IMG/VR virus record: IMGVR_UViG_3300045988_119787
Location: 10,557-74,556 of that record
Direction: 5' to 3' (one strand)
From: a virus
Length of the DNA: 64,000 bases
Shown here: positions 9,001-43,229 of the stretch, piece after piece
Numbering within the stretch: the first letter of the stretch is position 1
Layout: every line of letters begins with the position of its first letter
The notes under the pieces: generated by a model
What the model was told of the DNA's origin: nothing
Database searches by the model: none
Seen by the model: the letters and a program-made list of their open reading frames with translations, nothing else
Position numbers and translations under genes: made by a program

Positions 9001-12000
9001 GTGAAAACAAGGCAGACATTATCGGCGCCATCGACAACATGACTAAGCAGGCAATCGGTATGGGAGACAGCCATCTCAGAGTATTGAACCAAAACTTTGA
9101 TAACTGGGATAGACTGACTAGCAATGAGAGCCGCAAGAATGGCTATATCGTGACCGGTAATCTGATGCAGGCTTTGGTTGACAGTAAAGATCAGGGCTTG
9201 GGCGGTCAGTTGGTGAAATATACTACTGATACTGGCGAGGTGAAGACTGGTATCTTGATGCCAGACAGATTCGACCCTAAGGGCTTGACAACGGATGCGC
9301 CTATCAACAGCGTGACAGAGAAGTTTGAGCTTTCATCATGGCATGGTGGTATTGACGAGGTTACTTCATCGGATGGTGAAGTAAAGGTGAAGCGCATAGA
9401 CAACAATCGTGGCTACTTCTACGAGCTTCGTGTACCGAAGAGCAAGGCGAAGGGCGGCAAGTACTTCATGGATGAAGATTTGCTGAAACTGGTTAATGGC
9501 AATAACTTCGAGACCAGAGGCAACAATATGCTTGCTGAGTTTAAGCCAGAGCAGTTGAAGCCAGTACTGGACCGCCTGTCTAAAATGGGCGTGAAGGTGC
9601 AGGAGGAGCGCAAAACTTCTGAGGATGAAGGCACCCACTTCCGTGAGGACCGAGGCTTGCAGTATTCTAAAACAGATACAAAAGATGTTAAGAAAGGTAG
9701 AATCATTCCCGAAGATGTAGATAAAAATGTATCTTCGCAGATTGAAAAGAAGTTTGATTCTACCATTAAGGACATCGAAGAGCATACAGAAGACAGAGAT
9801 AAATCTTTGTTTGCTGATAATCTTGAATCTGCTCTGGATGAGTTTTCTGATCTTGGTAGAAGCGTTATTGAATATTACAAGAATGATTATGAACGAAAAG
9901 TTGAAAAGTTATCAGGACAGCATACCGGAGGACATCTTGGTGGTAAGAATGACGGTAAGGGAAATAAAGGCTCTTATCTACTGCAATATTATAAGACCGT
10001 TCTCGCCGTCGCTGACAGAGAACTTGCCTATAGAGACGCTAGAGCAAAGAATCTCAGAGAGACTTGGGGATTGCAGCCAGGAGGAGCGTTCACACTTGGA
10101 GCCGTTGAACGAATTTTTAAAGAAACAAATAGAGATAAAGGAAAGGCTGAACTCTTCCAAAGAGTTCTCGATATAAACAAGCGTCTTGGTGTAAACATCA
10201 AGGTAAGTGCCGAGAGTCCGAAGAAGAGATCTGGAGAAGCAGACACCAATAGAAACATTGATTTGTATATTGATGGTCTGACAAAAACAATGGCTCCAGA
10301 CTACGCTGCCCCTACTATTATGCTGCATGAAATGATTCATGAGGTAACAATGGGTGCTATCAATCTCGTTAAGAAAGGTAAGGCTGAGGGCATACTGACC
10401 CCTAAGCAGATAGAGGGCGTAAAGACTATCCTCAAAATCTATGACAAGGTAAAGGACGATAAGGAACGCTTCAAAGAAGAGCCTTACGGTCTGACTGATG
10501 CTTACGAGTTGACTGCTCAGATGGCAGATTCTAGACAGAGAAAGGCGATGGACTTGTCTATCTGGGATAGAGTTATGAATGCAGCACACGAATTTGCAAG
10601 AAGGGGCGATCGCTCTATCTTGCAGAGAGTGAAGGATGCCATCAAGAAACTGTTTGAGGTTTCTGACAAGGATAAGATGGATAAGGCTATCAACGACATC
10701 ATGGATGATTTCAATGAAACCATTGATGATATTTCCATGAATGAGATTGAACAGGATGGATTCGCCTACAAGGTTACAGACAAGGATGAGCTGGACCGCC
10801 TCAACAAGGAAAAGACTTTCAGAATGTATAGCGGAATGCAGGAGGTGGACGGAAAGTTGTACTCCCCTATGGCTGCGATCATTGACGGAAAGCGTACCGA
10901 TGCTACCGAGATTGGCGCTTGGATGGGCGCAGACGAGCGACCTGACCTTGTGAAGAACGGAAAGTTTACACTTGTGAAGACTGATAAGAATAAGGGTGTT
11001 GGCGAGGGTGATGTGCCTGCTGCCTACAATCCTTATATGCACACCTCCACTTCTATGATGAACGACCAGTTTACCGGTGCTTACGCTAGAGGCAACATCA
11101 AGGTTGTGGAATGGGAGATTCCTGAAAGCGAGAAGACCAGTGGCTATCGTGCTGAGGGTGCAAAGGATGCTGTGGGTCTTGTACCTTGGCATTCGGGTTC
11201 GGTTAATAGTTTGCTGCCGAAGGACAGACAGAGACAGGTGATGTTGTCACGCTGGAGAAAGGCGGTGAGAGTGGTTCCTGATTCAGAGGTGGCTGAGAGT
11301 ATCGCAGAACAGTTGAAGGGTACAGGCTTGGCTATCCCTTGGAATGTGGTTACTCCTAATCAGGTTAGGGAGTTGGCTAAGCTGGGCGTACCTATCACTA
11401 CCGTTGAATCGGGAAGACAGGCTCCTGAAACCAAGGAGAAGTTCTTGCAGCAGATGGCTGAACTGGAACAGGAGTTCCCTCAAGCTAAGTTCGTTAACGT
11501 GAAAATGTCAAAGGATGCCTTCAAGGTATGGGGCAAGGACGGAGGCACCAAGTTCCGCACGGACCATGGAGAAAGTAGCTACCCTACTTCATCGGTTGAG
11601 AGCCATGTGGAGAAGGTGGCTCAGAAGACTGGCGCAAAGGTGAACATGGTTTCATCAGTTGATGAAATCACCAACAAGGCTGCTAAGGCTGCTATTGAGG
11701 AAGGTAGAAAGATTACTGGCTGGTATGACGAGAAGACTGGCGAGGTACATCTTTATATGCCTAATATCCATGACAGATATACTGCCGAGAAGACTATCTG
11801 GCATGAGGTGGTTGGTCACAAGGGAATGAGAGAGTTGTTTGGTGAAGACCGATTCAACCAGTTCCTTCGTGATGTTTGGTACGACTTGGATAAGCCTGAG
11901 AATGCCGAATTGAAGAAGCTGGTGGATGAGGAGAGAAGATACAATCCTCTGAATATCTATGATGCCATAGAGGAAGGTATCGCCCGACTCGCCGAGGATG

Positions 12001-15000
12001 GCAAGGGTGAACCGGGCTTCTGGAATGGTATCAAAAACAAGGTATCTGATTTCCTTCATGAAATCGGTTATCGTATTGCTCCTAATACTAAAGATGTGAA
12101 GTATCTGCTCTGGTTGAGCAAGAACTTGCAGAAAAATCCGAATGACCCTTATTGGAAGCTGAGAGCCGAGGCGGTGAAATTCCGTCTCGACCATGATCGT
12201 GTGCCTGCTGTCGTGGCGCATGATGGTATGTTCTACGGAAATGACGGTAAGGTCCGCAGTATGGAGAGCATGACCAAGAGCGAATGGAACGAGGCTACAG
12301 ACGGACAGATTCACTTCCGTACTACCCCATCTGCCGGCACAGCACTTGACAGATACCACCGTTCGCTGGATGAGCACGGCTATATGTTCACCGAGAGCTA
12401 TATGGATAATATGCTTTCGTTGAAGAAGTTGATGAATGCGATTGTGCCAGATAAGAAGATTGAGGATATTGCTTCTTCGGAGAATCCTTATATACTGCAG
12501 AACACCATGCAGGGTGCGATGAGTGATGCGGCTCAGATGTTTGAGCGCAACGTAATGAAGCCGCTTGACAAGGCGATGGCTGGTGTGCTGGATGCCTTTG
12601 ATGGCAAGAAGGATGATGAGAAGATTAGAAACTTCAATCTCTACATGATTACCAAGCATGGTTTGGAGCGAAACAGAGTGTTCTTTGTTCGTGACTTCCT
12701 TAGACAGATGAGAATGTACGAGAAGAAGAAGCAGGATGCAGACATCTTGGAGAACCGCTGGAGTAACGAGAAGGAACGTCTGGATAACGAACTGAATGCT
12801 GGTAACATCGACCTGAAGGAGTACTACAGACAGATAGACGAGTTTATCAACAACGAAATCGACCCAGACTATAAGGCTGGCGAACACGACTATTCGGGTA
12901 TTCACGCTATACAAGAGGTAGCAAAGTCTTCTGACCCATACGATGATGCAGAGGCTATCGCTAGCGTGATGGATTCGGAAGCTAAGATGGAGAGCATCAA
13001 GAAGGGAGCTGTGAAGGACTATTGGGATAAGGTGAAGGCTGCAACCCAGTATTCGATTGACAGCGACTACAAGAATGGTATCATCAGCAAGGAGTTGCAC
13101 GGTCATGTATCTAATATGTTCAACTGGTATGTGCCTTTGAGAAAGTATGATGAGGCTACTGCAGAAGATACTTATGGCTACATTACTGAGCAGGGAGACC
13201 CGAAGAGTTACATCGGAAGCACCATCATGAGAGCAAGAGGACACAAATATCTGAGTGAGACAAATGTGCTGGCGCAGATTGGTGCGATGGGTAACAGAGC
13301 TATCAAGAACGGCGGTATGAATGCTATCCGTCAGGCTTTCGCAAGATTCGCGCGAAATAATTCGGGCAATAATCTGATTACAGAAACGAGTGTATGGTAT
13401 GAGAAGGACCCAATGACCGGTATTGTTTATGAGCGCTATCCTGATATTCCTGAGGACGCTACACCAGACGAAATCAACCAGATAGTTGCAGACTTCAATA
13501 CAGACATGAAGGCAAAGGCTGCACAGGGCTTGGCATCGAAGGTTTACCGCAGGGGCAGTATCGGCTATAAGTTCCAAAGAGCTGAGAATAAATCACAGCA
13601 TATCGTAGACGTGAAGATTGCCGGCAAGACTCATTCTTTTGTTATCAACGGAAATCCCAGAGCAGCGCAGGCATTGAATGGGTTGCTGGAGAACTCTAGC
13701 GCCAAGGGATTCATGAAACCTTTGAGCACTATTTCTAGAATGATGGCACAGCTCTGTACTTCATACAACCCTGAGTTCGTGATGAGAAACGCCTTCCGTG
13801 ATGCTGAGTTTGCTTCGAGCAACGTTACATCGAAGGAAGGTGCAAGATACGGGGCACTCTGGGCTAAGTACTACGCACAGCTGGGTCTGTATAAGGGCGC
13901 ATCGAATATCAGCTTGAAGGATTTCAGCGGTTCTACGGGTTTGGGATTGTTCGCAAAGTATCGTAACGGCACACTTGATATTTCTGACAAGGTTCAGAGA
14001 TACTTCAAGGAGTTCATGGAGAACGGCGGTGAGACTGGTTGGGTTCAGATCAAGAACATGAAGGATTGGACCAAGGAATACAAGAAAGACGTGAAGGACG
14101 AAAGAAGCAAGCTGAACAAGGGCGGTGAACTGGTACGTGATTTCTTCTTCGGTAACTTGGAGAACGTGAATGAGGTGGCAGAGAATATCGCCCGATTCAC
14201 TACTTACTGTACGAGTCGTGATTATGGACGTTCCGTTATCCGCTCTGTCTATGATGCCAAGGAAGTATCTACCAACTTCAACCGTCATGGTAGCGGTGAT
14301 GCCGTCAAGAGTTTCAAGAACGGTGAAATGACTGGAACCAAGGCTGCAAGAAGATGGGCATACGGATTTACTTCCGGCTATCTCAGACACTGCTCTATGT
14401 TCTTCAACGCTGGTATTCAGAGTACGAACCTTCTTGCGAAGAACTTGAAGAATCATCCTGTAGGAACTTCCATCAACATGCTTGCCATTCCTTTTGCACT
14501 CGGTGCGCTGGCTGCACTTGGAAACAATGTGCTGATTGCGAGTGAGGACGAAAAGGACAGAAAGGGAGTGAAGGACCCATACGGTGAACTGCCTGACTAC
14601 GTGAGAAGGAACAATCTCTGTATCTACAAGGGAGGCGGTCAGTTTATCACGATTCCGCTTGCCATCGAGTTAAGAGCTTTCTATGGCTTGGGTGACTTGG
14701 CTGCAGGCTTGACCTTCTCGCCAAACGTGAGCGGACAGAAGAATCCTTACTTAGATGCCGTGGGCTGTATGTCGCAGCTGGTTCCTGTGATGGACTATCT
14801 CGGTAACTCTTCGGCAGGCAAAGAACCGATTAACGAGACCATCAAGGCTATCTCTCCTTCTGCCCTATCTCCATTCGTTGAATGGGAGTTAAATACCGAC
14901 TGGAAGGGTGCGCCTATTGAGAGACGTGGCGACTGGAACGAAAATTCCCCTGCTTGGCAGAGAGCCTACAAGGGTATTCCTGACGGTTATATGGCTGTAA

Positions 15001-18883: not shown

Positions 18884-19423
18884 ATGAAGAAATTATTGTT
18901 TTTGTTTTATTTAGTATGTTTCCCTATTGCTATACTTGCACAAGATTCAGTGTTAGGTATAAATTTCGGGAACAGTTATAGTTCCGTCAAGTCTTCCCTT
19001 GAAAATAGATATGGCACTTTGAGCGTGATGGAAGATAAAGGAACGCTAAGAGTCTTCGATATTTCTGTTGGTGACTACACGTTTAATATGGGAGAATTTG
19101 ATTTTCAGTATAGCGGAAGTGATTCATACTTTTATTATGCGGAATTTCAAAAAAACTTTTCTGTAAATGCTTCTCAACAGGCTAAAGACTTTAGAGAAAA
19201 CTTGCGGTTTACATTGAGCCGGAAATATACAGCAGGCTATATATGGACAAACGAACAAGGTTACAAATGCTATAATTTTGCAGAACCGGGAACAGATCCA
19301 AAAGAAAATCCTGCATGTACTTTAATAGTGCAAAAATCTAAAAGTAAGGGTGGATCAACTTATATATATGTTACTCTCTATTATGGTCCACATTATTATA
19401 TAAATGAGGCTAGCGATTTTTAA
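18884..19423 (+). CDS. Secreted hypothetical protein (signal peptide)
   Basis: MKKLLFLFYLVCFPIAILAQD signal-like N-terminus. 179 aa. Confidence 0.6.
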   Translation: MKKLLFLFYLVCFPIAILAQDSVLGINFGNSYSSVKSSLENRYGTLSVMEDKGTLRVFDISVGDYTFNMGEFDFQYSGSDSYFYYAEFQKNFSVNASQQAKDFRENLRFTLSRKYTAGYIWTNEQGYKCYNFAEPGTDPKENPACTLIVQKSKSKGGSTYIYVTLYYGPHYYINEASDF

Positions 19424-19425
19424 TC

Positions 19426-19644
19426 ATGAAAACATTTATACTTTTTGCGATACTGTTCTGTTCTTCCGTAGGAAGTCAAGGCGTTTATGTTTGTACTGGT
19501 CCAACAGCTTATGCTTATCACAAAACCAAAGCCTGCAGAGGTCTTAGACGATGCTCGGGAGAAATTAAGAAAATTAGTTTAGAACAAGCTAAAAAGGAAA
19601 ACCGAAAAGCTTGCAAATTATGTTATAAAAAGAAACAAATATGA
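19426..19644 (+). CDS. Small exported Cys-rich protein (C-x..YH..C..C-x..C-x2-C zinc-ribbon-like motif)
   Basis: MKTFILFAILFCSSVGS signal, then CTGPTAYAYHKTKACRGLRRC...CKLC. Confidence 0.5.
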   Translation: MKTFILFAILFCSSVGSQGVYVCTGPTAYAYHKTKACRGLRRCSGEIKKISLEQAKKENRKACKLCYKKKQI

Positions 19645-19919
19645 GATACTTACCATTAATATTTTGTATATTTCTCCTATCTTGTGGACCATCAAAGAAA
19701 GATATGCAAGAGGAGATAGAATCTAAAAACGATACAATTATGATTCTAAGGAGAGAAATCAACAAGCAGTCTGAGTATATAGATGAATTGCAAGAAAAGT
19801 TAGACAATGCAAGATCTTATGCGGAAGACGTTCAGGCCGCACTAGATGATGGAAGTTTTAGTGATGCTTACGATGCTGCATCAGATGCAGAATCGGAAGC
19901 TGATTATAATGATTATTAA
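19641..19919 (+). CDS. Small lipoprotein with coiled-coil and acidic tail
   Basis: Lipobox LLSC at residues 12-15. ATGA overlap with the upstream gene. Confidence 0.55.
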   Translation: MRYLPLIFCIFLLSCGPSKKDMQEEIESKNDTIMILRREINKQSEYIDELQEKLDNARSYAEDVQAALDDGSFSDAYDAASDAESEADYNDY

Positions 19920-19928
19920 TAGATAGTT

Positions 19929-20111
19929 ATGAAAACAGAAGAATGGGTTATTCTCATAGTATTTGTGTTGGTCGCCATTGAAAGATGCGGTGGTATGAAT
20001 AAAGATGGTTCCGATAGAGGCGATACTTGGTATGAAGATATAAGCCTGGGAGTGCCAAACAACACTCCCATTCTTCTTTATCTATATTCTGTTTACTATC
20101 CTATCCGTTAG
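19929..20111 (+). CDS. Small membrane protein
   Basis: 60 aa, TM WVILIVFVLVAI. Its end overlaps the convergent gene's stop. Confidence 0.4.
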   Translation: MKTEEWVILIVFVLVAIERCGGMNKDGSDRGDTWYEDISLGVPNNTPILLYLYSVYYPIR

Positions 20112-20992: not shown

Positions 20993-23900
20993 TTATGATA
21001 ATGAATTAATTAAATTATCAACCAAAGGAAGTCGCTCCTCTAACCATTTCTTTACACGATATATGCTATCATAATGTCCAAGATAGAATGGTCTTTCTGA
21101 ATAGTATTTTGTTACAGGAGACACGTTGGTGCAATCCTTAATAACCTTAAATGCAAGATGCTCGAATACTACATAACTACCAGCAGTATAAGTTGTATCT
21201 TTATTCCATACCTTCTGACCAGAAGCTGTGATTCCTGCATCAGTATATGTACATGGGGTATAGTATTCTGTGTTTATGTTACTATCCCTATGACAAGGAG
21301 ATTGCTTCCATCTATCATACTCCTGCTTAAAATCATCTGTTCCAATTCTAGAACACCAATCAGTAAGAAGGTTAATGATGTTGTCAGCAGTAAGTATAGC
21401 CTTTCTGAGTTCAGAATATCTTTTCTTCAACTCTGTTGCAAAATACTTATATACCCAATATGTTCCACCATATCCCTTTTTGTTTCCCATCAAGCTGATT
21501 GGCTCCATAAAATTATCTTTTGGTGAGAAGCTGAAAGTGCCATCAAAGAAATCTCCAAACACACCATCTAGGTCATAAGGATATACACCAAATCTTACTC
21601 CATTCCAAGAACCAATTTGCCAATTCTTACCAAATCCATCATAGTTAGCTATAACGTTTGAGAAACAAAGATAATCAATAATGCCATCTACATCATATCT
21701 GTTATCAATTTCATTCTTTATATCATCTTTGGTCTTGCTGCCAGCTTCTATTTGTGCTTCTACTTCAGTAAGTTCTGTATCATATTTACTTAGGGCAATG
21801 ATATACTTTTTTACTTGAAATGATAGTTCCATATTCTTATTGGAAGCATCATAACTTTCAGATGTATCATCTATAAGCTCCTGCACTTTGTTTTTGTCTG
21901 CATCATATTTACTACCATCCATACAGATAAGAGACTTAGGGTTTCTTATCTCAAATCCCTGCTCACTCATCGGATTCCATGCAGTACTTGGCAATGTACC
22001 ATTTGCAGAAAATAGGTTTTGTCTAATAAAACCATCCAAGTGTATATTCTCAGCTTTATTCTTTGACATTTTCATATTGTCACGATGTTTCTTTAATTGC
22101 CAAGAAAAAACACCTAAGAACTCTCCTTCGAAATAGACTATGCAAGGAAATCCATCAGGAAAAGTTCTTGCTTCATCACCAAAGTCATAAGCAATTTCTG
22201 CATTTTGATTTATGCCATAAGATGCAGATGTGGAATCTTTATAGTATCTCTTATAAGCCCTGTCATTATGCAATCCACGACTTTTTGATATTTCATCAAA
22301 CAATTTATAGCAAACAACTCCTGCACCTCTAAAGGCATCAGTATAATATGCCTTAAAATGAAAACTGTCTTGTGATACCCAATTACCGATTTTTACTTTG
22401 CAGGTATCATCACCAATCCATTCATCATTGCATATAACTACTGCAAAATTCTTCTTTGCCAAATAGAGTGAACTACTTCCTTGCGCATTGAGAATTACAC
22501 GTTTCTTAAAGTATATGCCTTCTAATGTCCATACTTCTATCCATGCATGTAGATTCTGGGTTTTAGATGTTGGCATGTTTGATACTCCTGAAATGTTAAC
22601 TATAGCCTTTCTTGGTTGATTTGGGATTCTTATATGATCATCATTGCTCATGTCACAAGCATTGATGTTATATCCTTTACTTTTCAAATATTTAATGAAA
22701 TCATTTCCGTCTTCAACATGGAGGCTGGCAACACGCATTTTTTTCTCAACCTTTGTACCATCTTTTTCACGGAAACCAAGAATTTTATCATCAGAATCAG
22801 TTATCAATTCCATGCGTTCCTCTTGGTCTTCAAAGGATTTTTTTGAATTTGCTACATCTTCATTGATAAGTGTTTTACCTACCTCCTTATTAACCTTTGT
22901 ATCAAACGTTTCTGATTTCAAGTCATACACATAATGGCTTCCATCATTGTATGTAGCAGAAAGAATCCTTCCGTCTGCATCTTTCTCTACTGCAAGGTAC
23001 TCAGGATTCTCCTGCAAAGAGAAAATATCAAGAAGTTCTTGTAGATTGGTATCTATTGTACCTACCTTCTCCTGCAATGATGCAAGGTCTGATTGAAGCT
23101 GAGAGATAACTTTCTTCAAGGCATTGACTGCATGAATCTCACCAATGACCTCTCCGTCTCTTCTAAGACCAAGTAATACTTTATCGTCAGTAGTAACCCA
23201 AGCAGCAAAGTATTCTTCGCTCTGAATGACGTGATACATTTCATTAAGAGGATAATATGGCTTGCCAGTTGCTCTGTAGAAGCCAAACAGTACCTTATCA
23301 TCTGAATCCACTATAGCTTTGAGAAATTCTTCATTCTCAATTATTCTAAAGCACTCTTTTACTTCATCTTCAATGAGTGATTTGCCTTCTTCCTTGTCAA
23401 CCTTTGTATCTTGAAGATTCTTGATGTCCTCTCCAAACTTAGTATTGAGACTATTGAGGTTTGCAAGAATGCTTGTAAGGGTCTGCGTATTCTCAATCTC
23501 AGCAAAGAACTTCTTCAACTCATTCATGGTATCAATGACATTTGTTGTGTCCTCATCACCCATGATGGTTGCTACTCTCTCTGCAAGAAGAGTTACTTGT
23601 GACTGCAATCTGTCCTCTACAGCACTTGTCTTACCAAATACTGGAGTGGCATCCCATTGGATACCAAAGAGAAGCTTGTCCTCTGCGTCCACCTTGGCAA
23701 AGATGAACTCTTCATTCTGAATGTAGCGGAAAGGAGTTTCTACTACAGTTCCTTCCTCATCCTTGATAGCTACTTTATCTACTACTTCCTGCATTGTGCC
23801 AAGAGTCTGCTCTGTCTGCTCTCTAGAATCATCAGCCTTCTGGGCTGCTTCATTGGCTTTTAATGTAGCTTCTTCTGCCTTGGTTGTGGCAGCTTTAGCT

Positions 23901-24265
23901 TGCTCTGTAGCCTGAGCAGATGCTGTTGTTGCATTGGTTGCTAACTGGGTAGCATTGTCAGCCGCTTCCTTTGCTGCTGTGGCTGCTGCTGTAGCTTGCT
24001 TTGCATTTTCTGTAGCTTGATCAGCTTTGGCGGTAGCTTCTTTTGCCTTCTCGGTTGCCTCATTTGATGCAGTTACAGAATTATTTATCTCTTGCCGGAT
24101 AGACGGGGCAAGCTTTTGGGCTGTAACCGCACCGTCAGCCAACTTCTCGGAAGTAATATTGCCGTCACGAATCTTGTCTTTTGTAACAGATTGGTCATTA
24201 TAATCATCTGTTTTCATCATTGGCACCATACCACCTATTTTTGTATCTTGTCTAAATGTAGGCAT
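20993..24265 (-). CDS. Tail fibre protein: N-terminal fibre motif, Ala/Thr/Lys coiled coil, five internal repeats, CotH-like C-terminal domain
   Basis: ITSEKLADGAVTAQKLAPS fibre-type motif. ATEKAKEATAKADQATENAKQATAAATAAKEAADNATQ... coiled coil. C-terminus NYDGFGKNWQIGSWNGVRFGVYPYDLDGVFG resembles the CotH core. Confidence 0.7.
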   Translation of the reverse strand: MPTFRQDTKIGGMVPMMKTDDYNDQSVTKDKIRDGNITSEKLADGAVTAQKLAPSIRQEINNSVTASNEATEKAKEATAKADQATENAKQATAAATAAKEAADNATQLATNATTASAQATEQAKAATTKAEEATLKANEAAQKADDSREQTEQTLGTMQEVVDKVAIKDEEGTVVETPFRYIQNEEFIFAKVDAEDKLLFGIQWDATPVFGKTSAVEDRLQSQVTLLAERVATIMGDEDTTNVIDTMNELKKFFAEIENTQTLTSILANLNSLNTKFGEDIKNLQDTKVDKEEGKSLIEDEVKECFRIIENEEFLKAIVDSDDKVLFGFYRATGKPYYPLNEMYHVIQSEEYFAAWVTTDDKVLLGLRRDGEVIGEIHAVNALKKVISQLQSDLASLQEKVGTIDTNLQELLDIFSLQENPEYLAVEKDADGRILSATYNDGSHYVYDLKSETFDTKVNKEVGKTLINEDVANSKKSFEDQEERMELITDSDDKILGFREKDGTKVEKKMRVASLHVEDGNDFIKYLKSKGYNINACDMSNDDHIRIPNQPRKAIVNISGVSNMPTSKTQNLHAWIEVWTLEGIYFKKRVILNAQGSSSLYLAKKNFAVVICNDEWIGDDTCKVKIGNWVSQDSFHFKAYYTDAFRGAGVVCYKLFDEISKSRGLHNDRAYKRYYKDSTSASYGINQNAEIAYDFGDEARTFPDGFPCIVYFEGEFLGVFSWQLKKHRDNMKMSKNKAENIHLDGFIRQNLFSANGTLPSTAWNPMSEQGFEIRNPKSLICMDGSKYDADKNKVQELIDDTSESYDASNKNMELSFQVKKYIIALSKYDTELTEVEAQIEAGSKTKDDIKNEIDNRYDVDGIIDYLCFSNVIANYDGFGKNWQIGSWNGVRFGVYPYDLDGVFGDFFDGTFSFSPKDNFMEPISLMGNKKGYGGTYWVYKYFATELKKRYSELRKAILTADNIINLLTDWCSRIGTDDFKQEYDRWKQSPCHRDSNINTEYYTPCTYTDAGITASGQKVWNKDTTYTAGSYVVFEHLAFKVIKDCTNVSPVTKYYSERPFYLGHYDSIYRVKKWLEERLPLVDNLINSLS
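22741..23720 (-). repeat. Five copies of a ~28-aa motif EE[FY]xxAxxDxDDK[VIL]L.G....G inside the fibre gene
   Basis: NEEFIFAKVDAEDKLLFGIQWD; NEEFLKAIVDSDDKVLFGFYRATG; SEEYFAAWVTTDDKVLLGLRRDG; NPEYLAVEKDADGRILSATYNDG; ERMELITDSDDKILGFREKDG. Confidence 0.7.
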
Positions 24266-27892: not shown

Positions 27893-29587
27893 TTACTGAG
27901 CTACATCCTGACCTGTATAGACAGTCCAAGCGCTGCCGGTATAATAGTATACAGTACCAGCCTCGTACGTAACATCATCAGTAGGAGAATTAGTACCCTT
28001 CTTTACGTAGTCCTTTGTAAGAGCAACCTTCATGCCCTTTGCAGGAGTATCAGGAAGTTTATTCATTGAAATGATAGCATTGAGCGATTCAGTTGCAATC
28101 TTTGCGATTCTATCCTTTGGACCAACCAAGATAGAGTTGAAGCCACGAAGTGCAACAGAATCTGCCTCCTGATGAATCCAACGCTTAGCGTCACGAACTT
28201 CGCCACCACCCGTAGACATATCGTTGGTCTGTTCCTTCTTGCCAATCTTCACGTAACGTCGAGAAGCCTTAGGGTCAAAGATTACCATAAAGTCGGACAT
28301 ACCCACAAGGTCGAGATTCTGACACCAGACGAAATCAAGCGAGCCGAATGTATCCTTGAAACGTTTGAAGTTAAGATCAAACTCGTTATGATTGATGAAG
28401 TCATTCTGGTGGCTACCCTCCAGCTTGATATTCTCCAAACGCTCAATAGCATTCTTTCCGCAGAATGCGAAGCAGCGGTTGTTCTCTGAGAACTCAGTAA
28501 ACTGGAGCTTAGAAATTGCGATAAGGTCAGCCAATGTATAGGTATCGTCAATACCGTAGGTATTTGTCAACTGGTTAATGATACCCTCAGAGGTATAAAC
28601 GTCCTCTATCTGACCATCACCCGTTTCTACCTTGAAACGAGACTTACAGCCTAAGAGGTAAGTACGCTCTGCACGCAGATTATACTTGATGATTGCGTCT
28701 GTTTTAAGGTCGGCAACAGTAATAGGCTGCTCCTTCTTAACCTTCTCGTAATCATCGGTGAAGACAATGTTCAAAAGCTTCTTCTGAACATATACTTCCT
28801 TCTCACGTGGCTGATAGTTCTCTGGGGTAATTGTAAGCTGAGACTCGGATGCAGCAGAAGATGCAGCAAGGAATGTGGCGCCAACAGGAATCTCAGGACA
28901 GGTCATGTTGTCAAGATTCAAGCGTGTATCGCCGGCATTCTTTGGCTTACCATTAACCGCCTGAAGAGTAGCCTTCTTGCCGTTAGCTTCGATAACAAAG
29001 AGCATCAGATAACCCTCTCGCTTCTCCTGAGAGCCTTCTGCGTAACCAGCTACTTCCGGAACGATAACGGTAGTGCCCTTGTAGAATGGACGAATAGAGC
29101 CAGAGAAATTGGTTGAGTTAATCTCAATGGTGTCTCCAGTTTCGATTTTTACGGTAACCTGACCATCAAGAGTATCACCACCAACACGCATGTGCGAGAT
29201 TGACCAGTTACTGATTGTGACGGTCTTAGCCATACGGCGAACGATTGAAAGGATCGGTGTCTTATAAGGGTAGAACTGAACAATCTCCTTATCCCATTCC
29301 TTATCAAGCAAACCGCCCTCTTTAAGCTGAGTAGAAGAAGCCTGAGAGCCTGTAAGGTCTTGACCATCTTTATTGCCGCCTGGACTAAGGCGATCAGACT
29401 TGCCTGCCTCTACTGGTTCGGTAGCCTTAACGGTTGCATCGCTTGCAAGATTAGGACCTTCGTCACCAATCTGAGGTTCAACGAGATCTGCCATAGCCAT
29501 TGCGCCACCGCCTGTAACTACTGCAAGAATCATCAGAATCATCTTACAGATGAACTGAGTAGAAAAATAATTAATTACTTTCTTCAT
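27893..29587 (-). CDS. Putative major capsid protein
   Basis: 564-aa ORF directly after a scaffold-like gene and followed by a hairpin. Called by position and size only, no diagnostic motif. The hydrophobic N-terminus MILMILAVVTGGGAMAMA is atypical. Confidence 0.4.
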   Translation of the reverse strand: MKKVINYFSTQFICKMILMILAVVTGGGAMAMADLVEPQIGDEGPNLASDATVKATEPVEAGKSDRLSPGGNKDGQDLTGSQASSTQLKEGGLLDKEWDKEIVQFYPYKTPILSIVRRMAKTVTISNWSISHMRVGGDTLDGQVTVKIETGDTIEINSTNFSGSIRPFYKGTTVIVPEVAGYAEGSQEKREGYLMLFVIEANGKKATLQAVNGKPKNAGDTRLNLDNMTCPEIPVGATFLAASSAASESQLTITPENYQPREKEVYVQKKLLNIVFTDDYEKVKKEQPITVADLKTDAIIKYNLRAERTYLLGCKSRFKVETGDGQIEDVYTSEGIINQLTNTYGIDDTYTLADLIAISKLQFTEFSENNRCFAFCGKNAIERLENIKLEGSHQNDFINHNEFDLNFKRFKDTFGSLDFVWCQNLDLVGMSDFMVIFDPKASRRYVKIGKKEQTNDMSTGGGEVRDAKRWIHQEADSVALRGFNSILVGPKDRIAKIATESLNAIISMNKLPDTPAKGMKVALTKDYVKKGTNSPTDDVTYEAGTVYYYTGSAWTVYTGQDVAQ

Positions 29588-34495: not shown

Positions 34496-34894
34496 ATGGA
34501 AGATTTGGAATATGACGAGTTTAAATCGGTAAGGGAATTTCAGAAGGAGAAGAAGGAAAAAGCCAAGACCATTCTTCCGGCAAGGAAGAGTGCGCAGAAA
34601 GAATATATCAGAGATTTCCTTGCAAGGAATCAGGAAAAGTTTGAAGAGTGCATGGATCAGCTGGCAGAATATGACCCTAAGACATACGTCACCATCTACA
34701 AGGACCTGACCAAACACATGATACCTAAGCAGAGTGAGGTAAGCGTGACGCATGGACTGGACGAAGACTTCAAGCAGCTGGCAGCACTGGCACAGACCAA
34801 GACAGACAACAATGCCTTGGACGTTACGCAAGTTCCGCAGATAATGGATGCGGATTTTGAAGAAATAAAGGAGTTGGGCGATGGCATTAGTTAG
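34496..34894 (+). CDS. Possible small terminase subunit
   Basis: 132-aa charged protein that overlaps the large terminase start. Called by position only. Confidence 0.3.
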   Translation: MEDLEYDEFKSVREFQKEKKEKAKTILPARKSAQKEYIRDFLARNQEKFEECMDQLAEYDPKTYVTIYKDLTKHMIPKQSEVSVTHGLDEDFKQLAALAQTKTDNNALDVTQVPQIMDADFEEIKELGDGIS

Positions 34895-37013
34895 AGAAGT
34901 AGATATTGATGAACTCGTTGCCGAGAACAAAAGACGGTATGATGAGATTTATGGCACCTACGACCCTTGGACGGGCGAAGGGTGTTATGATTTTGAACAT
35001 CGCGAACTGCTGGAACTTCCGGACTTCATGATTTCGAAGATGTGGGTCCCCAAAGAATGTATGCGTACCTTATTATATAGGGGACTGAAACAGCTGGGCA
35101 GCATGAAGGAATACATCATCAGAGTATGGGGCAAGCAGTATGAAGAGAAGAGTTATTACACCAGACAGCTTAAAATGTTGCTCACCTTCGAAATCATGAA
35201 AGTCAGATTCAGAGAAGACCCTGAATTTGCCCTTTATTCTACCGACAAGATTGAGGATAAGGTAAGCGGTGACATGATACCTTTTAAGCTGAACTATCCT
35301 CAGCGAAAACTCTTGAAGATTTTTGAGGACTTGAGAACCGGTGGCAGGGCTATCCGTGTAGTTATCCTAAAAGCTCGACAATGGGGTGGTTCTACCCTCA
35401 CCCAGCTTTACATCAAATGGTTGCAGGATTTCAGAAAGGACGGTTGGAATGCTATCGTACTTGCCCAGCAGAAGAACACAGCAAAGAAAATCAAGGCAAT
35501 GTATCGAAAGGCTTTGGAGAACCAACCGGGATGGACGATTGGCAGACCGGGAGCGAAGCTTCAATTCTCTCCTTACGAGAACTCGCCAGACGATTTCCAA
35601 GTTACAGACGGAATGAGGGCAATCCGAAGAAGTACACTGACTGTGGCTTCTTTCGAGAACTTCGATTCCGTGCGAGGTAGCAACTTCCACTGCGCTCACT
35701 ATTCCGAGGTTGCTTACTGGAAGAAGACTCCCGAGCATGATCCTGAGGGTGTGATTTCGTCAATATCGGGTGGTATCAGAAACCAAGAGGATAACCTAGA
35801 GGTATTCGAGAGTACCGGCAAGGGTAATTCGGGATTCTTCTATGACAAGTGCCAGTTGGCGATGGACCCAAAGAACAATGATGCCTATTCGTTCCTGTTC
35901 ATTCCTTGCTTCTTTATCGAGCATGATATGGAAGAGGTGAAGGATGAGCGTGCCTTTGCAAGATGGCTGCTGGAGAACAGAGACAAGAGTACCAACCCGA
36001 AGGGCTACCGAGAAACAGGAAAGTTCTTCTGGCGAATGTGGGAGAAGGGTGCTTGCTTCCAAGCCATTGAGTGGTACAGAAACTTCCGCAACAAGTTTAC
36101 CACCCATTCATTCTGTGCTACAGAGGCGCCAGTGGACGAAGAGGACGCTTTCAGAAACTCAGGTAACTTGGTATTCAATCCGTACAGTATTGATGATTTG
36201 CAGAAGAAGTACAAGCGTGAACCGCTCTATACGGCAGACATCATTGTTGACGGAAACAAGAATGACTCAACCATTGAGAAGTCGAAGGTGAGCATCAGAA
36301 CAGATGGTGACGGAGACTTGAAAATTTGGGCTGTTCCTAACGTCCTGCAGGTGGAGAACAGATACTTGGTGAGCGTGGATATTGGCGGTAAGAGTACCAC
36401 TTCTGACTATACCGTCATGACGGTGATAGACCGATTCGGAATGATTCCGACCGTCAAGGGCAAACCGAAGGTAGTAGCTAGATACAGAGGTCATGTAAGA
36501 CACGACAAGCTGGCGTGGATGGCTGCTGCCCTAGCCCATTACTATGATGATGCCCTGCTGGTGATTGAGAGTAATACGGCTGACCGAGAGAAGAACAACA
36601 ATACGGAAGGTGACCACTTCGGAAGCATCCTGAACGAGATTGCCGACTACTACGATAATCTTTATCAGCGAACCACAAGTCCGGAAGACGTGACCGATGA
36701 TGTGCTTGCTAAGTACGGTTTCCAAACCAACAAACTGACAAAGGGATGGATAATTGACAACTTGGAGCAGTTTGTGGATGATATGCTCTGGGATGAGCCA
36801 GACAAGGAAATGTATCATGAGCTGAGAATCTATGAGCGACATGATGATGGAAGTCTCGGCAACATCGTGGGCAACGGTAATCATGATGATGTTCTGATGA
36901 GTACGGCAATCGGTCTTTGGGTGAGTGCCAACGACATGGAGAAGCCTCAATGGAAGAAGAAAGAAAAAACAAGAAGCGGTGGTGACGGTGTGTATACTGC
37001 TGCAAAAATATAA
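34881..37013 (+). CDS. terL: Terminase large subunit
   Basis: VVILKARQWGGSTLTQ Walker-A-like terminase motif. 710 aa. Nuclease-like C-terminus. AAGGAG 7 nt upstream. Confidence 0.75.
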   Translation: MALVREVDIDELVAENKRRYDEIYGTYDPWTGEGCYDFEHRELLELPDFMISKMWVPKECMRTLLYRGLKQLGSMKEYIIRVWGKQYEEKSYYTRQLKMLLTFEIMKVRFREDPEFALYSTDKIEDKVSGDMIPFKLNYPQRKLLKIFEDLRTGGRAIRVVILKARQWGGSTLTQLYIKWLQDFRKDGWNAIVLAQQKNTAKKIKAMYRKALENQPGWTIGRPGAKLQFSPYENSPDDFQVTDGMRAIRRSTLTVASFENFDSVRGSNFHCAHYSEVAYWKKTPEHDPEGVISSISGGIRNQEDNLEVFESTGKGNSGFFYDKCQLAMDPKNNDAYSFLFIPCFFIEHDMEEVKDERAFARWLLENRDKSTNPKGYRETGKFFWRMWEKGACFQAIEWYRNFRNKFTTHSFCATEAPVDEEDAFRNSGNLVFNPYSIDDLQKKYKREPLYTADIIVDGNKNDSTIEKSKVSIRTDGDGDLKIWAVPNVLQVENRYLVSVDIGGKSTTSDYTVMTVIDRFGMIPTVKGKPKVVARYRGHVRHDKLAWMAAALAHYYDDALLVIESNTADREKNNNTEGDHFGSILNEIADYYDNLYQRTTSPEDVTDDVLAKYGFQTNKLTKGWIIDNLEQFVDDMLWDEPDKEMYHELRIYERHDDGSLGNIVGNGNHDDVLMSTAIGLWVSANDMEKPQWKKKEKTRSGGDGVYTAAKI

Positions 37014-39688: not shown

Positions 39689-39720
39689 AATTCTTTTTCC
39701 ATAAGTTGATAACATAAAAG

Positions 39721-39751
39721 AAGGCGGCTACTCGTGATGAGCAGTCGCCTT
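39721..39751. terminator. Bidirectional intrinsic terminator
   Basis: AAGGCGGCTACTC-gtgat-GAGCAGTCGCCTT imperfect 13-bp stem. A/T-rich runs on both sides. Confidence 0.65.
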
Positions 39752-39770
39752 CGCAGTTAATAACTAAAAA

Positions 39771-40256
39771 TCAACTGAACCTATGAAACATTTTACGAAG
39801 AAATCCTATAGAATATCCTAACCAGAAGCAATATAGATGTAGAGTTCCATTGACATCATTCAACAGCATGGTAAAGAGAATGAACGGCATTGCCTTCTTG
39901 GTAGCCTCTTTCCACCTGCCGGTCTTTCCCCACATGATGCCGAGTGCGGAAAAGAGAAATCCCGACAACCCCATTGTCGGCTCTGTAACGAACATGGGCA
40001 GGAAGCTGGCTGCTACTGCTGTCACGAACGAAAGGGTTACATCTATCTTATTCTTTATACTCCAAAGCACCATCAGATTGATGAGCAGATGGAATAAGTT
40101 GACATGAAAGAAGCTGTAGACGAAATGATTTTCAATCGGGCAACCCTGATAGAAGCCTACGTGCTGCGTGCATAGAACCAGGCAGACAAGACTAAGAATC
40201 AGCTTGATCAGAAAGTTTCTTCTTGCGAAGGTCCATTTCCCTATAACTCTTTCCAT
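39771..40256 (-). CDS. Compact rhomboid-like intramembrane serine protease
   Basis: 161 aa, multi-TM. HxxxN (FHLLINLMVLW), GxSG (MGLSGFLFSALG) and a C-terminal His (GTLHLYCFWLGY) in the order of rhomboid TM2/TM4/TM6. Confidence 0.6.
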   Translation of the reverse strand: MERVIGKWTFARRNFLIKLILSLVCLVLCTQHVGFYQGCPIENHFVYSFFHVNLFHLLINLMVLWSIKNKIDVTLSFVTAVAASFLPMFVTEPTMGLSGFLFSALGIMWGKTGRWKEATKKAMPFILFTMLLNDVNGTLHLYCFWLGYSIGFLRKMFHRFS

Positions 40257-40647
40257 ATCTTTTGCAATAATTGAAGATGAACATCATGTTCTTTGGCTTG
40301 ATGAAGAATTCCGGTGCAGGCTCACTCACCAAGAACTGACAGATGAACCAGAGCGATTTCCCAAGGAACTCTTTTTTCTGTGACATTTCCATCAGCTTAT
40401 CATACAAGGAGTAATACATTCTCCTCTTGTTGGGCTTCATGTTGTCAACGGTTGAGAAATCGCCAACAACCATTTTTTCGAGCTTTCTGTACGCCTGCTT
40501 GGGAGATACATAATATCTCGGAGCTGGCGACTTCACCACCTTCTCGTATGCTTCCTGCTGCGAATGGCAGGTAGGGGCTATAGCACGATACGCCTTCATC
40601 AGGTCGTCCCTCTGTCTTTCAATCAGTTCGAAATTTGTCTTCGTCAT
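40192..40647 (-). CDS. Hypothetical protein, first gene of rhomboid cassette
   Basis: Start trimmed to ATG 40647 (MTKTNFE...) because a -7 box lies at 40670-40677, inside the longer ORF. Overlaps the rhomboid start by 65 nt. Confidence 0.5.
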   Translation of the reverse strand: MTKTNFELIERQRDDLMKAYRAIAPTCHSQQEAYEKVVKSPAPRYYVSPKQAYRKLEKMVVGDFSTVDNMKPNKRRMYYSLYDKLMEMSQKKEFLGKSLWFICQFLVSEPAPEFFIKPKNMMFIFNYCKRYGKSYREMDLRKKKLSDQADS

Positions 40648-40669
40648 AAACACGCTAGTTAAGATGGTG

Positions 40670-40677
40670 CAAATATA
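40670..40677 (-). promoter_or_regulatory. Bacteroidota-type -7 box (TATATTTG on minus strand)
   Basis: Plus-strand CAAATATA, 23-30 nt upstream of ATG 40647. Confidence 0.5.
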
Positions 40678-40769
40678 CAATTTATTTAGATTCTAACCAA
40701 ATAAGCGTATAAAGATTTAAATAAGTTTAATATTAGACCGATTTTCATGGCATTACGAAAGAAAAAGCT

Positions 40770-40847: not shown

Positions 40848-41021
40848 ATGAGAACAAAACAGGAAACACCTCTCTCGGAAGAGGAGAAAGCCTTAGTTAT
40901 GGAAGGCTTATTGAGTAGGAAGATTTGGAGGTTCTATGAACTTCTAGCAAAGTGGGCACCCATACTGTTGATGCTTGGCCATTGGTATGGAGTATGGGAC
41001 TATGGGCGTTATCCCTAGACC
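40848..41021 (+). CDS. Small hypothetical protein (57 aa, below ORF-track cutoff)
   Basis: Hand translation gives MRTKQETPLSEEEKALVMEGLLSRKIWRFYELLAKWAPILLMLGHWYGVWDYGRYP*. First ORF after the promoter. Confidence 0.35.
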
Positions 41022-41334
41022 TACCATCACAGATACCGACTGCAACGGTAACTGCATCATCTGGATTTACGTGCTGTCGTATATCTATATGCCTTTATCC
41101 ATGATTCCCGTGAGTTTCTTTTTCAGATACTGCTGGATTTTCCGCATCCCATTCTTCTATTTCATTGGCATCAATGCCATCAGACTGTATTACCATCACT
41201 GGCTCATCACTCCAGAGCAACTGGAAATGCACCATGTGTTCATTATATTCACTTTAATGCTATACGCTTATGGATTTATCAAAATCGCTCTATCACGTAG
41301 CAAAATCTGCATTCCACATGCTACAAAACGATGA
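40987..41334 (+). CDS. Multi-TM hypothetical membrane protein
   Basis: The frame opens after TGA 40969-40971. Candidate starts are TTG 40975 and ATG 40987. Sequence is very hydrophobic. Confidence 0.4.
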   Translation: MEYGTMGVIPRPTITDTDCNGNCIIWIYVLSYIYMPLSMIPVSFFFRYCWIFRIPFFYFIGINAIRLYYHHWLITPEQLEMHHVFIIFTLMLYAYGFIKIALSRSKICIPHATKR

Positions 41335-41800: not shown

Positions 41801-42250
41801 ATGGCTGAAATAATTCATACATTCTTGCAAGAGCACCTGTATAGGTCGGCATTGATCATTGCCATCTGTATGGGTGCTCTTATCATTTCTATGGGCGTGG
41901 ACCTGTTCTTCGGCATCAAGAAAGCGAAAGAGAACGGACTGGCTACGACAAGTACAGGATTCAAGAAGACTTGCGACAAGGCAAGGAAGTATTTTTCGCC
42001 CTTCATGGTGACGGTCTGCATAGACCTGATTGCCTGTACGGTTCTCCCCTTCCCGATTTTCTCCATGATTTGGGTTGGCTATTGCGTGTTCTGTGAATTT
42101 GTAAGTGTAAGAGAAAAGAGCTGGCAGAAGGCTGAGATACGGAAACAAGAGAAGACGGTAAGCATTCTTCTGGAGAACAAAGAGGACCTTGCTAGGGCTT
42201 TTGCCGAGATTATGAAGGAACTGGAAAAGGAGAAGGAGGCAAAAGGATGA
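41801..42250 (+). CDS. Holin (LL-H/holin_4-like)
   Basis: TM segments plus VDLFFGIKKAKENGLATTSTGFKKT motif. Lies immediately upstream of the endolysin and overlaps it. Confidence 0.6.
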   Translation: MAEIIHTFLQEHLYRSALIIAICMGALIISMGVDLFFGIKKAKENGLATTSTGFKKTCDKARKYFSPFMVTVCIDLIACTVLPFPIFSMIWVGYCVFCEFVSVREKSWQKAEIRKQEKTVSILLENKEDLARAFAEIMKELEKEKEAKG

Positions 42251-42792
42251 AGATAACTAGAAAACAAATGGTGAATGCTGTAGGAAATGTTGATAAAATT
42301 GACATTCTCCTACATTATATCAACATCTATCTTGATGTCTTTGACATCAATACTCCTCTGAGAGCAGCACACTTTATGGCACAATGCTGTCACGAAACTG
42401 GCGGTCTGAAATTCCTGAAAGAGAAGGGCAATTCCAAGTATTTCAAGAAATATGAGCAGGGAAGACTCGGAAAGATTCTTGGCAATACTCAGACTGGAGA
42501 CGGTGAGAAGTACAAGGGTCGTGGCTTGCTGCACCTTACTGGCAGAGCCAACTACAAGGCTTATCAGAAGTCTGGATATTGCAAGGGCGACATCATGGAG
42601 AATCCGGAATTGCTGGAGCAACCGATTGGTGCTATCAAGAGTGGTATGTGGTGGTGGATGAAGCATAAACTGAATGCTCTTGCCGACAAGGATGCTTTCG
42701 AGGCGATTACGAGAAGAGTGAACGGTGGAACAAACGGACTGGAAGACCGAGGAAGATGGCTAAGAATTTGGAAAAAGGAGTTATGCGCATGA
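42247..42792 (+). CDS. Endolysin, GH19/chitinase-like (COG3179-type)
   Basis: AHFMAQCCHETGGLKFLKE...GNTQTGDGEKYKGRGLLHLTGRANY signature. Confidence 0.8.
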   Translation: MKITRKQMVNAVGNVDKIDILLHYINIYLDVFDINTPLRAAHFMAQCCHETGGLKFLKEKGNSKYFKKYEQGRLGKILGNTQTGDGEKYKGRGLLHLTGRANYKAYQKSGYCKGDIMENPELLEQPIGAIKSGMWWWMKHKLNALADKDAFEAITRRVNGGTNGLEDRGRWLRIWKKELCA

Positions 42793-43229
42793 AATGGTAT
42801 GATATTAGGTTTTGGAAATGGGCGTGTGTAGCCTTGGCTATTGGTGTTATCCTGCTAGCCTTTACTGGCTGCAAGACTAAGGAATACATCAAGATTCCAG
42901 AATATCACACGGAATACATCGTGAGAACCGACACAGTTGCCAAGACGGATAGTATATACATGAAGGATTCTGTACATGTCTTTCAGAAGGGTGATACGGT
43001 GGTGATTAGCAAGGTTGCTTATCGGGACCGCTACCATAATATATATAAGGTGAAGCTTGACACTATCTTTAGGCATGATTCTATTGAGGTTCCTGTGCCA
43101 TGTGAGCGGACGCTTACCAAGAGCGAGCAGAGACTCATGACGCTAGGAAGGTGCTATATAGCCTTTCTCTTCTTAGTGGTTGTTGTCGGAATTGGGTTTG
43201 CCTTCTGGTATCATAATAAAAAATGCTAG
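42756..43229 (+). CDS. Unimolecular spanin candidate (N-terminal lipobox plus C-terminal TM)
   Basis: LLAFTGC lipobox. C-terminal TM CYIAFLFLVVVVGIGFAFWY. Overlaps the endolysin stop (alternative ATG 42783 in ATGCGCATGA). Confidence 0.5.
   Translation: MAKNLEKGVMRMKWYDIRFWKWACVALAIGVILLAFTGCKTKEYIKIPEYHTEYIVRTDTVAKTDSIYMKDSVHVFQKGDTVVISKVAYRDRYHNIYKVKLDTIFRHDSIEVPVPCERTLTKSEQRLMTLGRCYIAFLFLVVVVGIGFAFWYHNKKC

Follow-up and report, generated by a model that had tools for sequence, protein, structure and literature searches.

What does a phage gain from encoding an intramembrane protease, and which protein does that protease cut? To our knowledge, rhomboids are among the most widespread of membrane proteases; substrates are known for very few of the bacterial ones, and no viral role has been described for any. 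The question is raised by a two-gene cassette in a 64,000-nucleotide (nt) stretch of viral DNA, hereafter the window (IMGVR_UViG_3300045988_119787, positions 10,557-74,556, one strand; all coordinates are window positions). A preliminary description of this DNA proposed that the cassette encodes a 151-amino acid (aa) protein together with a minimal, 161-aa rhomboid-like protease, and drew attention to its place beside the lysis genes. We find that the 161-aa protein is very probably an active rhomboid. Sequence comparisons indicate that the two genes are a conserved, core-like pair of the head/packaging module in a large Bacteroidales phage family, and that their adjacency to the lysis genes reflects a rearrangement confined to the lineage of the window. 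Tentatively, we read the pair as a two-part rhomboid protease of that module, with the leader of the phage's own major capsid protein as its most likely substrate.

Family membership and fold are established by profile searches and structural modelling. The 161-aa protein matches PF01694 (Rhomboid) over residues 45-141 at 25.6 bits (E 1.6e-5), above the gathering cut-off of 22.6 bits, and a profile of 34 homologues compared with Protein Data Bank (PDB) sequences found GlpG at E 1e-3, with HxxxN and GLSG aligned. The AlphaFold2 model (predicted local distance difference test score, pLDDT, 77.7; predicted template modelling score 0.73) has six long helices, and ranks 1-31 of its Foldseek search against the PDB were all GlpG (probability 1.0, template modelling scores 0.56-0.65), followed by iRhom1 and then noise. 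The motifs run in the order HLLIN, GLSG, and H140, as first described: HxxxN lies on transmembrane segment 2 (TM2), the GxSx serine (G96-L-S98-G99) at the start of TM4, and the catalytic histidine on TM6. The overall superposition of the model on GlpG suggests that Ser98 and His140 are juxtaposed. Because Lys and Arg residues are confined to the N-terminus, loops L2 and L4, and the C-terminus (14, versus 0 on L1, L3, and L5), a GlpG-like topology is predicted, with both termini cytoplasmic and the Ser98/His140 site near the periplasmic face.

Among the tests named in the preliminary description were a rhomboid profile match and conservation of the catalytic residues, and both came out in favour of the assignment. 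We aligned 132 distinct phage homologues from all fetched loci, whose identity to the window protein has a median of 32% and a minimum of 17%. H51, H56, N60, G96, and S98 are invariant in all 132, H140 and G147 are present in 131 (the single exception being a gap), and G99 is glycine in 112 and otherwise A, N, C, or S. We infer that the protein is proteolytically active. The protein does not fall into the narrower rhomboid classes with which it was compared. It scores 13 bits against the GlpG equivalog (TIGR04239 / NF008155; cut-offs 250 and 335), with no N-terminal domain in cis, and 12.9 bits against rhombosortase (TIGR03902; cut-off 84); no C-termini combining a Gly/Ser motif, a transmembrane segment, and a basic tail were noted among the membrane proteins of the window. 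The Trp-Arg motif of L1, common in rhomboids and outside the catalytic definition, is absent both from the short L1 of this protein (HVGFYQGCPIENHFVYSFF) and from the family consensus. An exhaustive profile search returned 735 cluster representatives (50% identity) at E <= 1e-3, nearly all of 140-200 aa, which by sequence define a distinct clade of short rhomboids. Two scans for viral contigs carrying this clade found 184 and 294.

The protease does not travel alone. Its 151-aa companion matches phrog_27246, a family of unassigned function, at E 2e-15; no Pfam domain was found in any of 38 family members, and the homologues (213 in a first search, 817 in a second) are all unnamed. The protein contains an internal duplication of two helix-PAPxF[YF]-helix units, and its AlphaFold2 model (pLDDT 92.3) has no Foldseek match in PDB or BFVD. 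One lineage has fused the two proteins into a single 292-aa open reading frame (ORF), P0352 (L275:1980-2858, +). Residues 1-130 of the fusion correspond to the companion profile (hhalign probability 99.2, E 6e-20) and residues 153-285 to the rhomboid profile (E 7e-14), with HxxxN, GLSG, and the histidine intact. An identical P0352 occurs on nine contigs from several samples, in a context of capsid, scaffold / fusion, and TerL (large terminase) genes. Because of this fusion, the 151-aa protein is most likely a cytoplasmic partner of the protease, and the fusion would place that partner on the cytoplasmic N-terminus of the rhomboid core.

Both ORFs proposed for the cassette were confirmed, and their pairing is established well beyond the window. 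We compared 83 distinct related cassettes, with partner-protein identity down to ~27%, and the partner and rhomboid ORFs overlap in 83/83, by 14-212 nt (mostly 65, 35, or 29 nt). This overlap, not noted in the preliminary description, probably couples the translation of the two genes. We also considered a programmed frameshift that would fuse both ORFs, and rejected it as rhomboid frame and overlap length vary among cassettes. The rhomboid lies in the +1 frame in nearly all cassettes of the window lineage and in 79/83 distinct cassettes overall, but the isolates and one prophage use the other frame; given this frame switch and the range of overlap lengths, there is no conserved shift site, and simple coupling is likelier. 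Many gene-call records hold a 100-aa rhomboid that starts at Met62 (e.g., among P0017, P0024, and P0028, and in L002 and L007), and others omit the 151-aa gene or report a spurious opposite-strand ORF. The Met62 version would lack TM1, TM2, and the invariant HxxxN, so the 161-aa reading is the correct one. Gene callers thus mishandle the ORF overlap, leaving the system under-annotated in metagenomes.

Where the pair sits in related genomes bears directly on what it might do. We distinguish lineage A, the Segatella/Prevotella lineage of the window (~80 related viral contigs compared); lineage B, represented by 80 IMG/VR loci centred on the capsid gene (L113-L192); and a third, lineage C, exemplified by locus L009. 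In lineage A, the helix-turn-helix, spanin-like, endolysin, holin-like, 153-aa, and 56-aa genes point left, the 151-aa and rhomboid genes point right, and the 887-aa, TerL, and 132-aa genes then point left again. In most other lineages sampled the order is capsid ← scaffold / partner → rhomboid → TerL, often with overlapping stop and start codons. This arrangement, facing capsid and scaffold and preceding TerL, occurs in the cultured temperate Bacteroides phages BF1-TP2, BKO1-TP3, and BS-TP4, and in Bacteroidaceae, Alistipes, and Cryptobacteroides prophages; identities of the pair in these isolates and prophages are 25-32%. The arrangement also holds in 78/80 of the IMG/VR loci of lineage B, where the pair lies 1.3-1.9 kb upstream of the capsid gene; the other two contigs end there. 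At L009 the rhomboid gene again immediately precedes TerL, and the partner gene lies beyond TerL, in convergent orientation. The L009 rhomboid (L009:8665-9150, -) itself overlaps TerL, and a DUF6549 protein with an N-terminal membrane anchor and a coiled coil (L009:9147-9740, -) is coupled to it upstream by an ATGA overlap.

Among the lineages sampled, the cassette adjoins lysis genes only in lineage A; in BF1-TP2 the endolysin region is ~13 kb from the pair. The lysis genes to which the preliminary description pointed are real: a holin-like protein, a GH19 endolysin, and a protein with a lipobox and a C-terminal transmembrane segment are encoded nearby. The functional tie to lysis that it implied is not supported, as elsewhere the pair, or the rhomboid alone, stands directly upstream of TerL. 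The synteny with head and packaging genes is established across very divergent genomes. Comparing the window with BF1-TP2 by tblastn detected only seven shared proteins: the polyvalent protein, a scaffold-like protein, portal, TerL, the 887-aa protein, a Rha-like protein, and the rhomboid. The rhomboid therefore behaves as a core gene of the morphogenesis module. TerL of the window shares 35-40% identity with its counterparts located just after the rhomboid in isolates and prophages, and the window encodes a P22-type portal and an SU10-type adaptor.

The only transmembrane-like segment in the head module is the leader of the major capsid protein. The capsid assignment draws on homologues: that of L098 matches Pfam SU10_MCP, and that of BF1-TP2 matches SU10_MCP at 2.5e-33. 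In the window the protein begins with MKKVINYFSTQFICKMILMILAVVTGGGAMAMA, followed by DLVEPQIGDEG.... The design of this leader is constant: 2-4 basic residues (the K/R count ahead of the h-region has a median of 3) precede 12-15 hydrophobic ones, and a Gly/Ser-rich stretch then runs into a hydrophobic-x-x-Ala/Gly ending, after which an acidic, Gly/Pro-rich linker of 50-90 residues leads to the HK97-type body. A leader is present in every capsid homologue examined (12 isolate/prophage loci, 80/80 in lineage B, ~50 distinct lineage-A N-termini, and L275), and its co-occurrence with the rhomboid is complete in the family. It fits the criteria for a Sec-type signal peptide (basic n-region, h-region of 10-15 residues, and small-x-small c-region), and would be expected to direct export. 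At its end, P1 is Ala or Gly and P4 is V, M, F, or L, while P2' is mostly A, V, or L; at P3, the residues A, M, C, L, T, and V predominate. Work on TatA defined a motif for rhomboid recognition with a small P1, a large hydrophobic P4, and a hydrophobic P2' (PMC2941825). The ending of the leader fits this motif, and also the specificity of signal peptidase I. No match to a conventional prohead protease was found in Pfam or PHROGs among the head-module ORFs scanned.

By its sequence setting, the leader is translated: the first ATG of the capsid gene lies 20 nt past the scaffold stop codon. We considered whether the Met-Ala conserved where the leader ends could instead be an internal start and rejected this, as Leu takes the place of Met in lineage A (GGGVLALAD) and Met is also missing from two variants of lineage B.

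The reading that we prefer can be set out as follows. The 161-aa protein would provide a six-helix catalytic core, and the 151-aa protein, made from the overlapping frame, would be its cytoplasmic partner. In most other lineages sampled the pair would form an operon with TerL, from which we infer late expression; in lineage A it would have been relocated and would be transcribed separately, with a Bacteroides-type promoter at one end and a terminator at the other. The protease would cut a membrane-inserted single-pass segment, most likely the signal-peptide-like leader of the capsid protein. Once its leader was cut, the capsid protein would leave the membrane and become available for head assembly, and the partner would recognize or deliver the cytoplasmic body of the substrate. 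We hold this capsid-leader model as possible but doubtful. Its most specific form, in which rhomboid and partner act as a capsid-protein leader peptidase and the capsid protein is membrane-tethered and then released by intramembrane proteolysis, is more doubtful again.

Several observations weigh against this proposal. The main objection is one of topology: the positive-inside rule predicts that the leader inserts N-in/C-out, as a Sec signal peptide does, and the capsid protein, whose place of assembly is the cytoplasm, would then be exported. Substrates in the N-out/C-in orientation are favoured by rhomboids (PMC7232013); with a type II substrate the motif would have to fold back to reach the active site, a solution suggested for Star (PMC2941825). 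The small-x-small ending of the leader would also suit host signal peptidase I. No related outgroup with leader or rhomboid alone was found, so their co-occurrence may reflect shared ancestry only; the nearest GenBank TerL relatives, Manatee Spring podovirus and Vibrio phage douglas, have neither and are too distant to inform. Capsid proteins with predicted signal peptides occur in Porphyromonas gingivalis Nixviridae, where an S49 prohead protease is the assumed remover (PMC10367356) and no phage rhomboid was found. In Stenotrophomonas phage DLP5 a rhomboid gene occurs together with a capsid protein whose N-terminus is ordinary and bears no hydrophobic leader. Finally, the lineage A cassette is ~10 kb from the capsid gene.

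Other targets have to be weighed against the capsid leader. The rhomboid could cut host envelope proteins, for instance an inner-membrane DNA-entry protein, a receptor-linked component, a membrane-anchored defence effector, or an anti-sigma factor, and so serve superinfection exclusion, counter-defence, or host takeover. We consider this unlikely, though it is the alternative that we take most seriously. The lineage A cassette is moron-like, with a host-type promoter and its own terminator; BF1-TP2 carries an integrase and a repressor, showing these phages to be temperate; other phage rhomboids have been described as morons (PMC5834331); and bacterial rhomboids of known role act on host membrane proteins (PMC7232013, PMC7231995). 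However, most other lineages couple the gene translationally to TerL in the late module, which is odd for an early function or one expressed in lysogeny, and its core-like retention across Bacteroides, Segatella, Alistipes, and Cryptobacteroides hosts favours a phage-internal target. Such a target could still belong to lysis, with the rhomboid tuning its course by cutting the holin, the spanin-like protein with its lipobox and C-terminal transmembrane segment, or the 56-aa transmembrane protein. This we think improbable. Lysis block and cassette are divergent in the window and ~80 related loci, the spanin-like protein (42756-43229) would lie N-out/C-in in the membrane, the orientation preferred by rhomboids (PMC7232013), and the anchored coiled-coil DUF6549 protein of lineage C is coupled directly upstream of the rhomboid. 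Against these points, the adjacency is lineage-specific, as the distant endolysin region of BF1-TP2 illustrates, and neighbours in most other lineages are terminase, scaffold, and capsid genes. Moreover, close relatives exchange lysis genes (GH19 versus Amidase_2) while retaining the rhomboid pair, and the 56-aa protein is not detectable outside lineage A.

Two further alternatives were weighed. If the 151-aa protein were the small terminase, the rhomboid would be an unrelated passenger between the small and large terminase genes. A 140-150-aa protein followed by rhomboid and TerL does occupy the usual place of a small terminase, and no other small terminase was recognized. Yet the idea is very improbable: the partner finds no support as a terminase in Pfam, PHROGs, NCBIfam, a PDB sequence-profile search, or Foldseek against PDB and BFVD, and has no fold match. 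In lineage A the partner moves with the rhomboid and not with TerL, which is preceded there by a different, 132-aa gene with no profile similarity to the partner. The overlap of the two ORFs in every cassette and the natural fusion to a membrane protease in P0352 also count against it. Least probable of all, in our estimate, is a use other than proteolysis, as a membrane scaffold, a membrane-thinning factor, a pseudoprotease, or a quality-control factor for the late membrane-protein load. Pseudoproteases do exist in the rhomboid superfamily (PMC3149277), and bacterial rhomboids can serve quality control (PMC7232013), but invariance of Ser, His, and HxxxN over 132 sequences, down to 17% identity, is the opposite of the pseudoprotease pattern. 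The loss of catalytic Ser/His that marks iRhom and derlin-like proteins was not seen here.

How the pair is expressed in the window can be read from its borders. Two minus-strand ORFs lie between a Bacteroides-type promoter and a strong hairpin terminator, and the proposal that the cassette has both of its own is plausible (see the table below). The composite element TTTG-N20-TATATTTG at 40670-40701 (-) has the TTTG-N20-TAnnTTTG spacing, the arrangement of a primary-sigma promoter of Bacteroides. In the window the bare motif shows no excess (41 found versus 46.6 expected), and the composite has 3 matches against 1.6 expected. Among the 83 distinct cassettes, TAnnTTTG lies 10-105 nt (mostly 24-49 nt) upstream of the partner ATG in 82, and the TTTG + TAnnTTTG composite is kept in most related cassettes. 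It is this conserved position that makes the promoter credible. The 13-bp-class hairpin downstream folds at -25.1 kcal/mol (z = -5.57; 0/200 shuffles equally stable) and is plausibly the terminator of the cassette; a simple terminator scan missed it owing to a bulge in the stem, and direct folding detected it. We rejected recent horizontal acquisition of the cassette, as its GC fraction of 0.39-0.42 shows no anomaly against flanks of 0.39-0.47.

Table. Coordinates in the window of the cassette, its signals and catalytic residues, the candidate substrate, and the genes used for comparison.
Feature	Position	Strand	Basis or remark
Partner protein, 151 aa	40192..40647	-	ORF from ATG at 40647; phrog_27246 family
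Rhomboid, 161 aa, six transmembrane segments	39771..40256	-	ORF from ATG at 40256; PF01694
Overlap of the two ORFs, 65 nt, rhomboid in +1 frame	40192..40256	-	ORF coordinates
HxxxN (HLLIN, H56..N60)	40077-40091; H56 codon 40089-40091, N60 codon 40077-40079	-	
Catalytic S98 (GLSG)	39963-39965	-	
Catalytic H140	39837-39839	-	
TTTG, putative -33-like element	40698..40701	-	Read from sequence
TATATTTG, putative -7 element (TAnnTTTG)	40670..40677	-	23 nt upstream of partner ATG; inferred function
Putative terminator: hairpin 39720-39752 and T-tract TTTTAT 39714-39719 on minus strand	39714..39752	between convergent genes	RNA fold
Major capsid protein, SU10/HK97-type, 564 aa	27893..29587	-	BLASTP E 1e-53 to L098 protein
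Capsid leader, residues 1-33, MKKVINYFSTQFICKMILMILAVVTGGGAMAMA then D	29489..29587	-	Candidate substrate, inferred
Large terminase (TerL)	34881..37013	+	PHROG terminase matches
Holin-like protein, 149 aa	41801-42250	+	
GH19 endolysin	42247-42792	+	
Lipobox + C-terminal transmembrane protein (spanin-like)	42756-43229	+	

Some neighbouring genes deserve mention in their own right. The spanin-like protein combines an N-terminal lipobox (LLAFTGC) with a C-terminal transmembrane segment, the architecture of a unimolecular spanin, and prophage L109 encodes a homologue of 27% identity close to its portal gene. In ~65%-identical relatives the GH19 endolysin is replaced by Amidase_2 at the same position (L007:3952-4407), and where this swap occurs the rhomboid pair is retained, as are the holin-like and spanin-like genes on either side of the endolysin. 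The lysis-side operon contains a further candidate gene, an ORF of 115 aa (40987-41334, +) that is very hydrophobic and lies between the 56-aa and 153-aa genes, at a place where gene callers choose a 46-aa opposite-strand ORF instead. A 5175-aa ORF of the polyvalent-protein kind occupies 24-15551 (+), and its product is probably a polyvalent protein injected with the DNA, judging from its relatives; the 5226-aa protein beside the partner gene at L009 has ResIII, Kinase-PolyVal, and LPD38 domains, and in BKO1-TP3 the counterpart is annotated as DarB-like antirestriction. Within the structural region, a 1090-aa protein (20993-24265, -) has a CotH kinase domain (Pfam E 8.8e-15), unusual for a phage tail/fibre region. 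Four consecutive small ORFs of 179, 72, 92, and 60 aa (18884-20111, +) each have an N-terminal signal peptide or lipobox, and one of the leaders ends in ...ILAQ, consistent with the Bacteroidetes Q-rule. Lying on the opposite strand within the structural region, they look like secreted or lipoprotein morons.

An identical rhomboid is encoded on a 105.6-kb gut-metagenome contig (L002) that is collinear with the window around the cassette. The two are collinear from the portal gene to ~44.6 kb and divergent beyond, and two radical-SAM genes and a methyltransferase gene of L002 have no counterpart at the corresponding window positions. The divergence past ~45000 indicates that the early region is mosaic. 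Because close relatives sit on contigs binned with Segatella copri and Candidatus Segatella violae, and in a Leyella stercorea isolate, the host is probably a member of the Prevotellaceae.

Regardless of its substrate, the rhomboid is fixed in the head/packaging module of a large family of abundant human-gut phages. It keeps unusual company there, with a private cytoplasmic partner of novel-looking fold and in genomes whose capsid protein bears a secretion-type leader. If that leader is the substrate, tailed-phage head assembly would include a membrane-bound step, and a virus-encoded rhomboid would have its first assigned function; we know of no counterpart to such membrane-coupled head maturation in tailed phages. 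If it is not, a secretion-type leader on a capsid protein still needs explaining. Since three relatives have been cultured on Bacteroides hosts, the target of a phage rhomboid is directly testable.

The existence of phage rhomboid genes is not new: they are already annotated in BF1-TP2 (gp59) and BS-TP4 (gp8) in GenBank, and in DLP5 and DLP3. The preliminary description knew of no role for them, and this holds in the literature that we searched (phage rhomboids; rhomboid with holin, terminase, or capsid), which gave bare annotations only, with no function assigned and no mention of the partner, the fusion, the fixed pre-terminase position, or the association with a leader-bearing capsid protein. 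The closest counterparts already in annotated phages are BF1-TP2 gp59, BS-TP4 gp8, and BKO1-TP3 gp50 (mislabelled a glycoside hydrolase), which belong to the same clade, are 29-32% identical to the window rhomboid, and have the same partner gene and overlap arrangement. Their phages are of the same type as that of the window, with a giant polyvalent protein, a P22-type portal, and an SU10-type capsid. In the isolates the pair lies upstream of TerL and faces scaffold and capsid, whereas in the window it stands next to the lysis block, with the 887-aa gene running towards it from the other side. The publication on these three phages does not mention a rhomboid or report virion proteomics (PMC12694917). 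The 'rhomboid membrane protein' of Stenotrophomonas phages DLP5 and DLP3 is also a short phage-encoded rhomboid, of 175 aa (PMC5834331, PMC7326821). Unlike the window protein, that of DLP5 lies among lipopolysaccharide-modification morons and not in the head module, in a phage that has an XkdF-type protease, and the DLP5/DLP3 protein was not detected as a relative of the window rhomboid by tblastn.

Among cellular rhomboids, GlpG of E. coli and H. influenzae (PF01694, MEROPS S54) shares the six-segment core, HxxxN on TM2, GxSG on TM4, the histidine on TM6, and the predicted topology. The phage protein differs in being phage-encoded, only 161 aa long and ~15-18% identical, with a short L1 that is without Trp-Arg; in place of a cytoplasmic domain in cis, it has a separate and unrelated 151-aa partner. 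For the partner, the nearest parallel in layout is B. subtilis YqgP (GluP), whose rhomboid core carries an N-terminal cytosolic domain that regulates or hands over the substrate (PMC7231995). P0352 shares this layout, although no similarity between the YqgP domain and the phage partner could be detected, and the latter is normally a separate polypeptide. For a protease in the head module, the comparison is with prohead proteases such as the S49 enzyme of Nixviridae, which likewise accompanies a capsid protein with a removable-looking N-terminus (PMC10367356). Prohead proteases are soluble and packaged in the prohead, whereas the phage rhomboid is an integral membrane enzyme of an unrelated family, and we put forward the functional analogy as a hypothesis only. 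The rhombosortase/GlyGly-CTERM system pairs a dedicated rhomboid with a terminal signal built from three elements, namely a Gly/Ser-rich motif, a hydrophobic helix, and basic residues (PMC6219818, PMC3237569). All three recur in the capsid leader, in mirror order at the N-terminus, which would give a type II and not a type I/III topology. A precedent for removal at that end is AarA, a rhomboid that takes a short N-terminal peptide off TatA and thereby activates it (PMC2941825).

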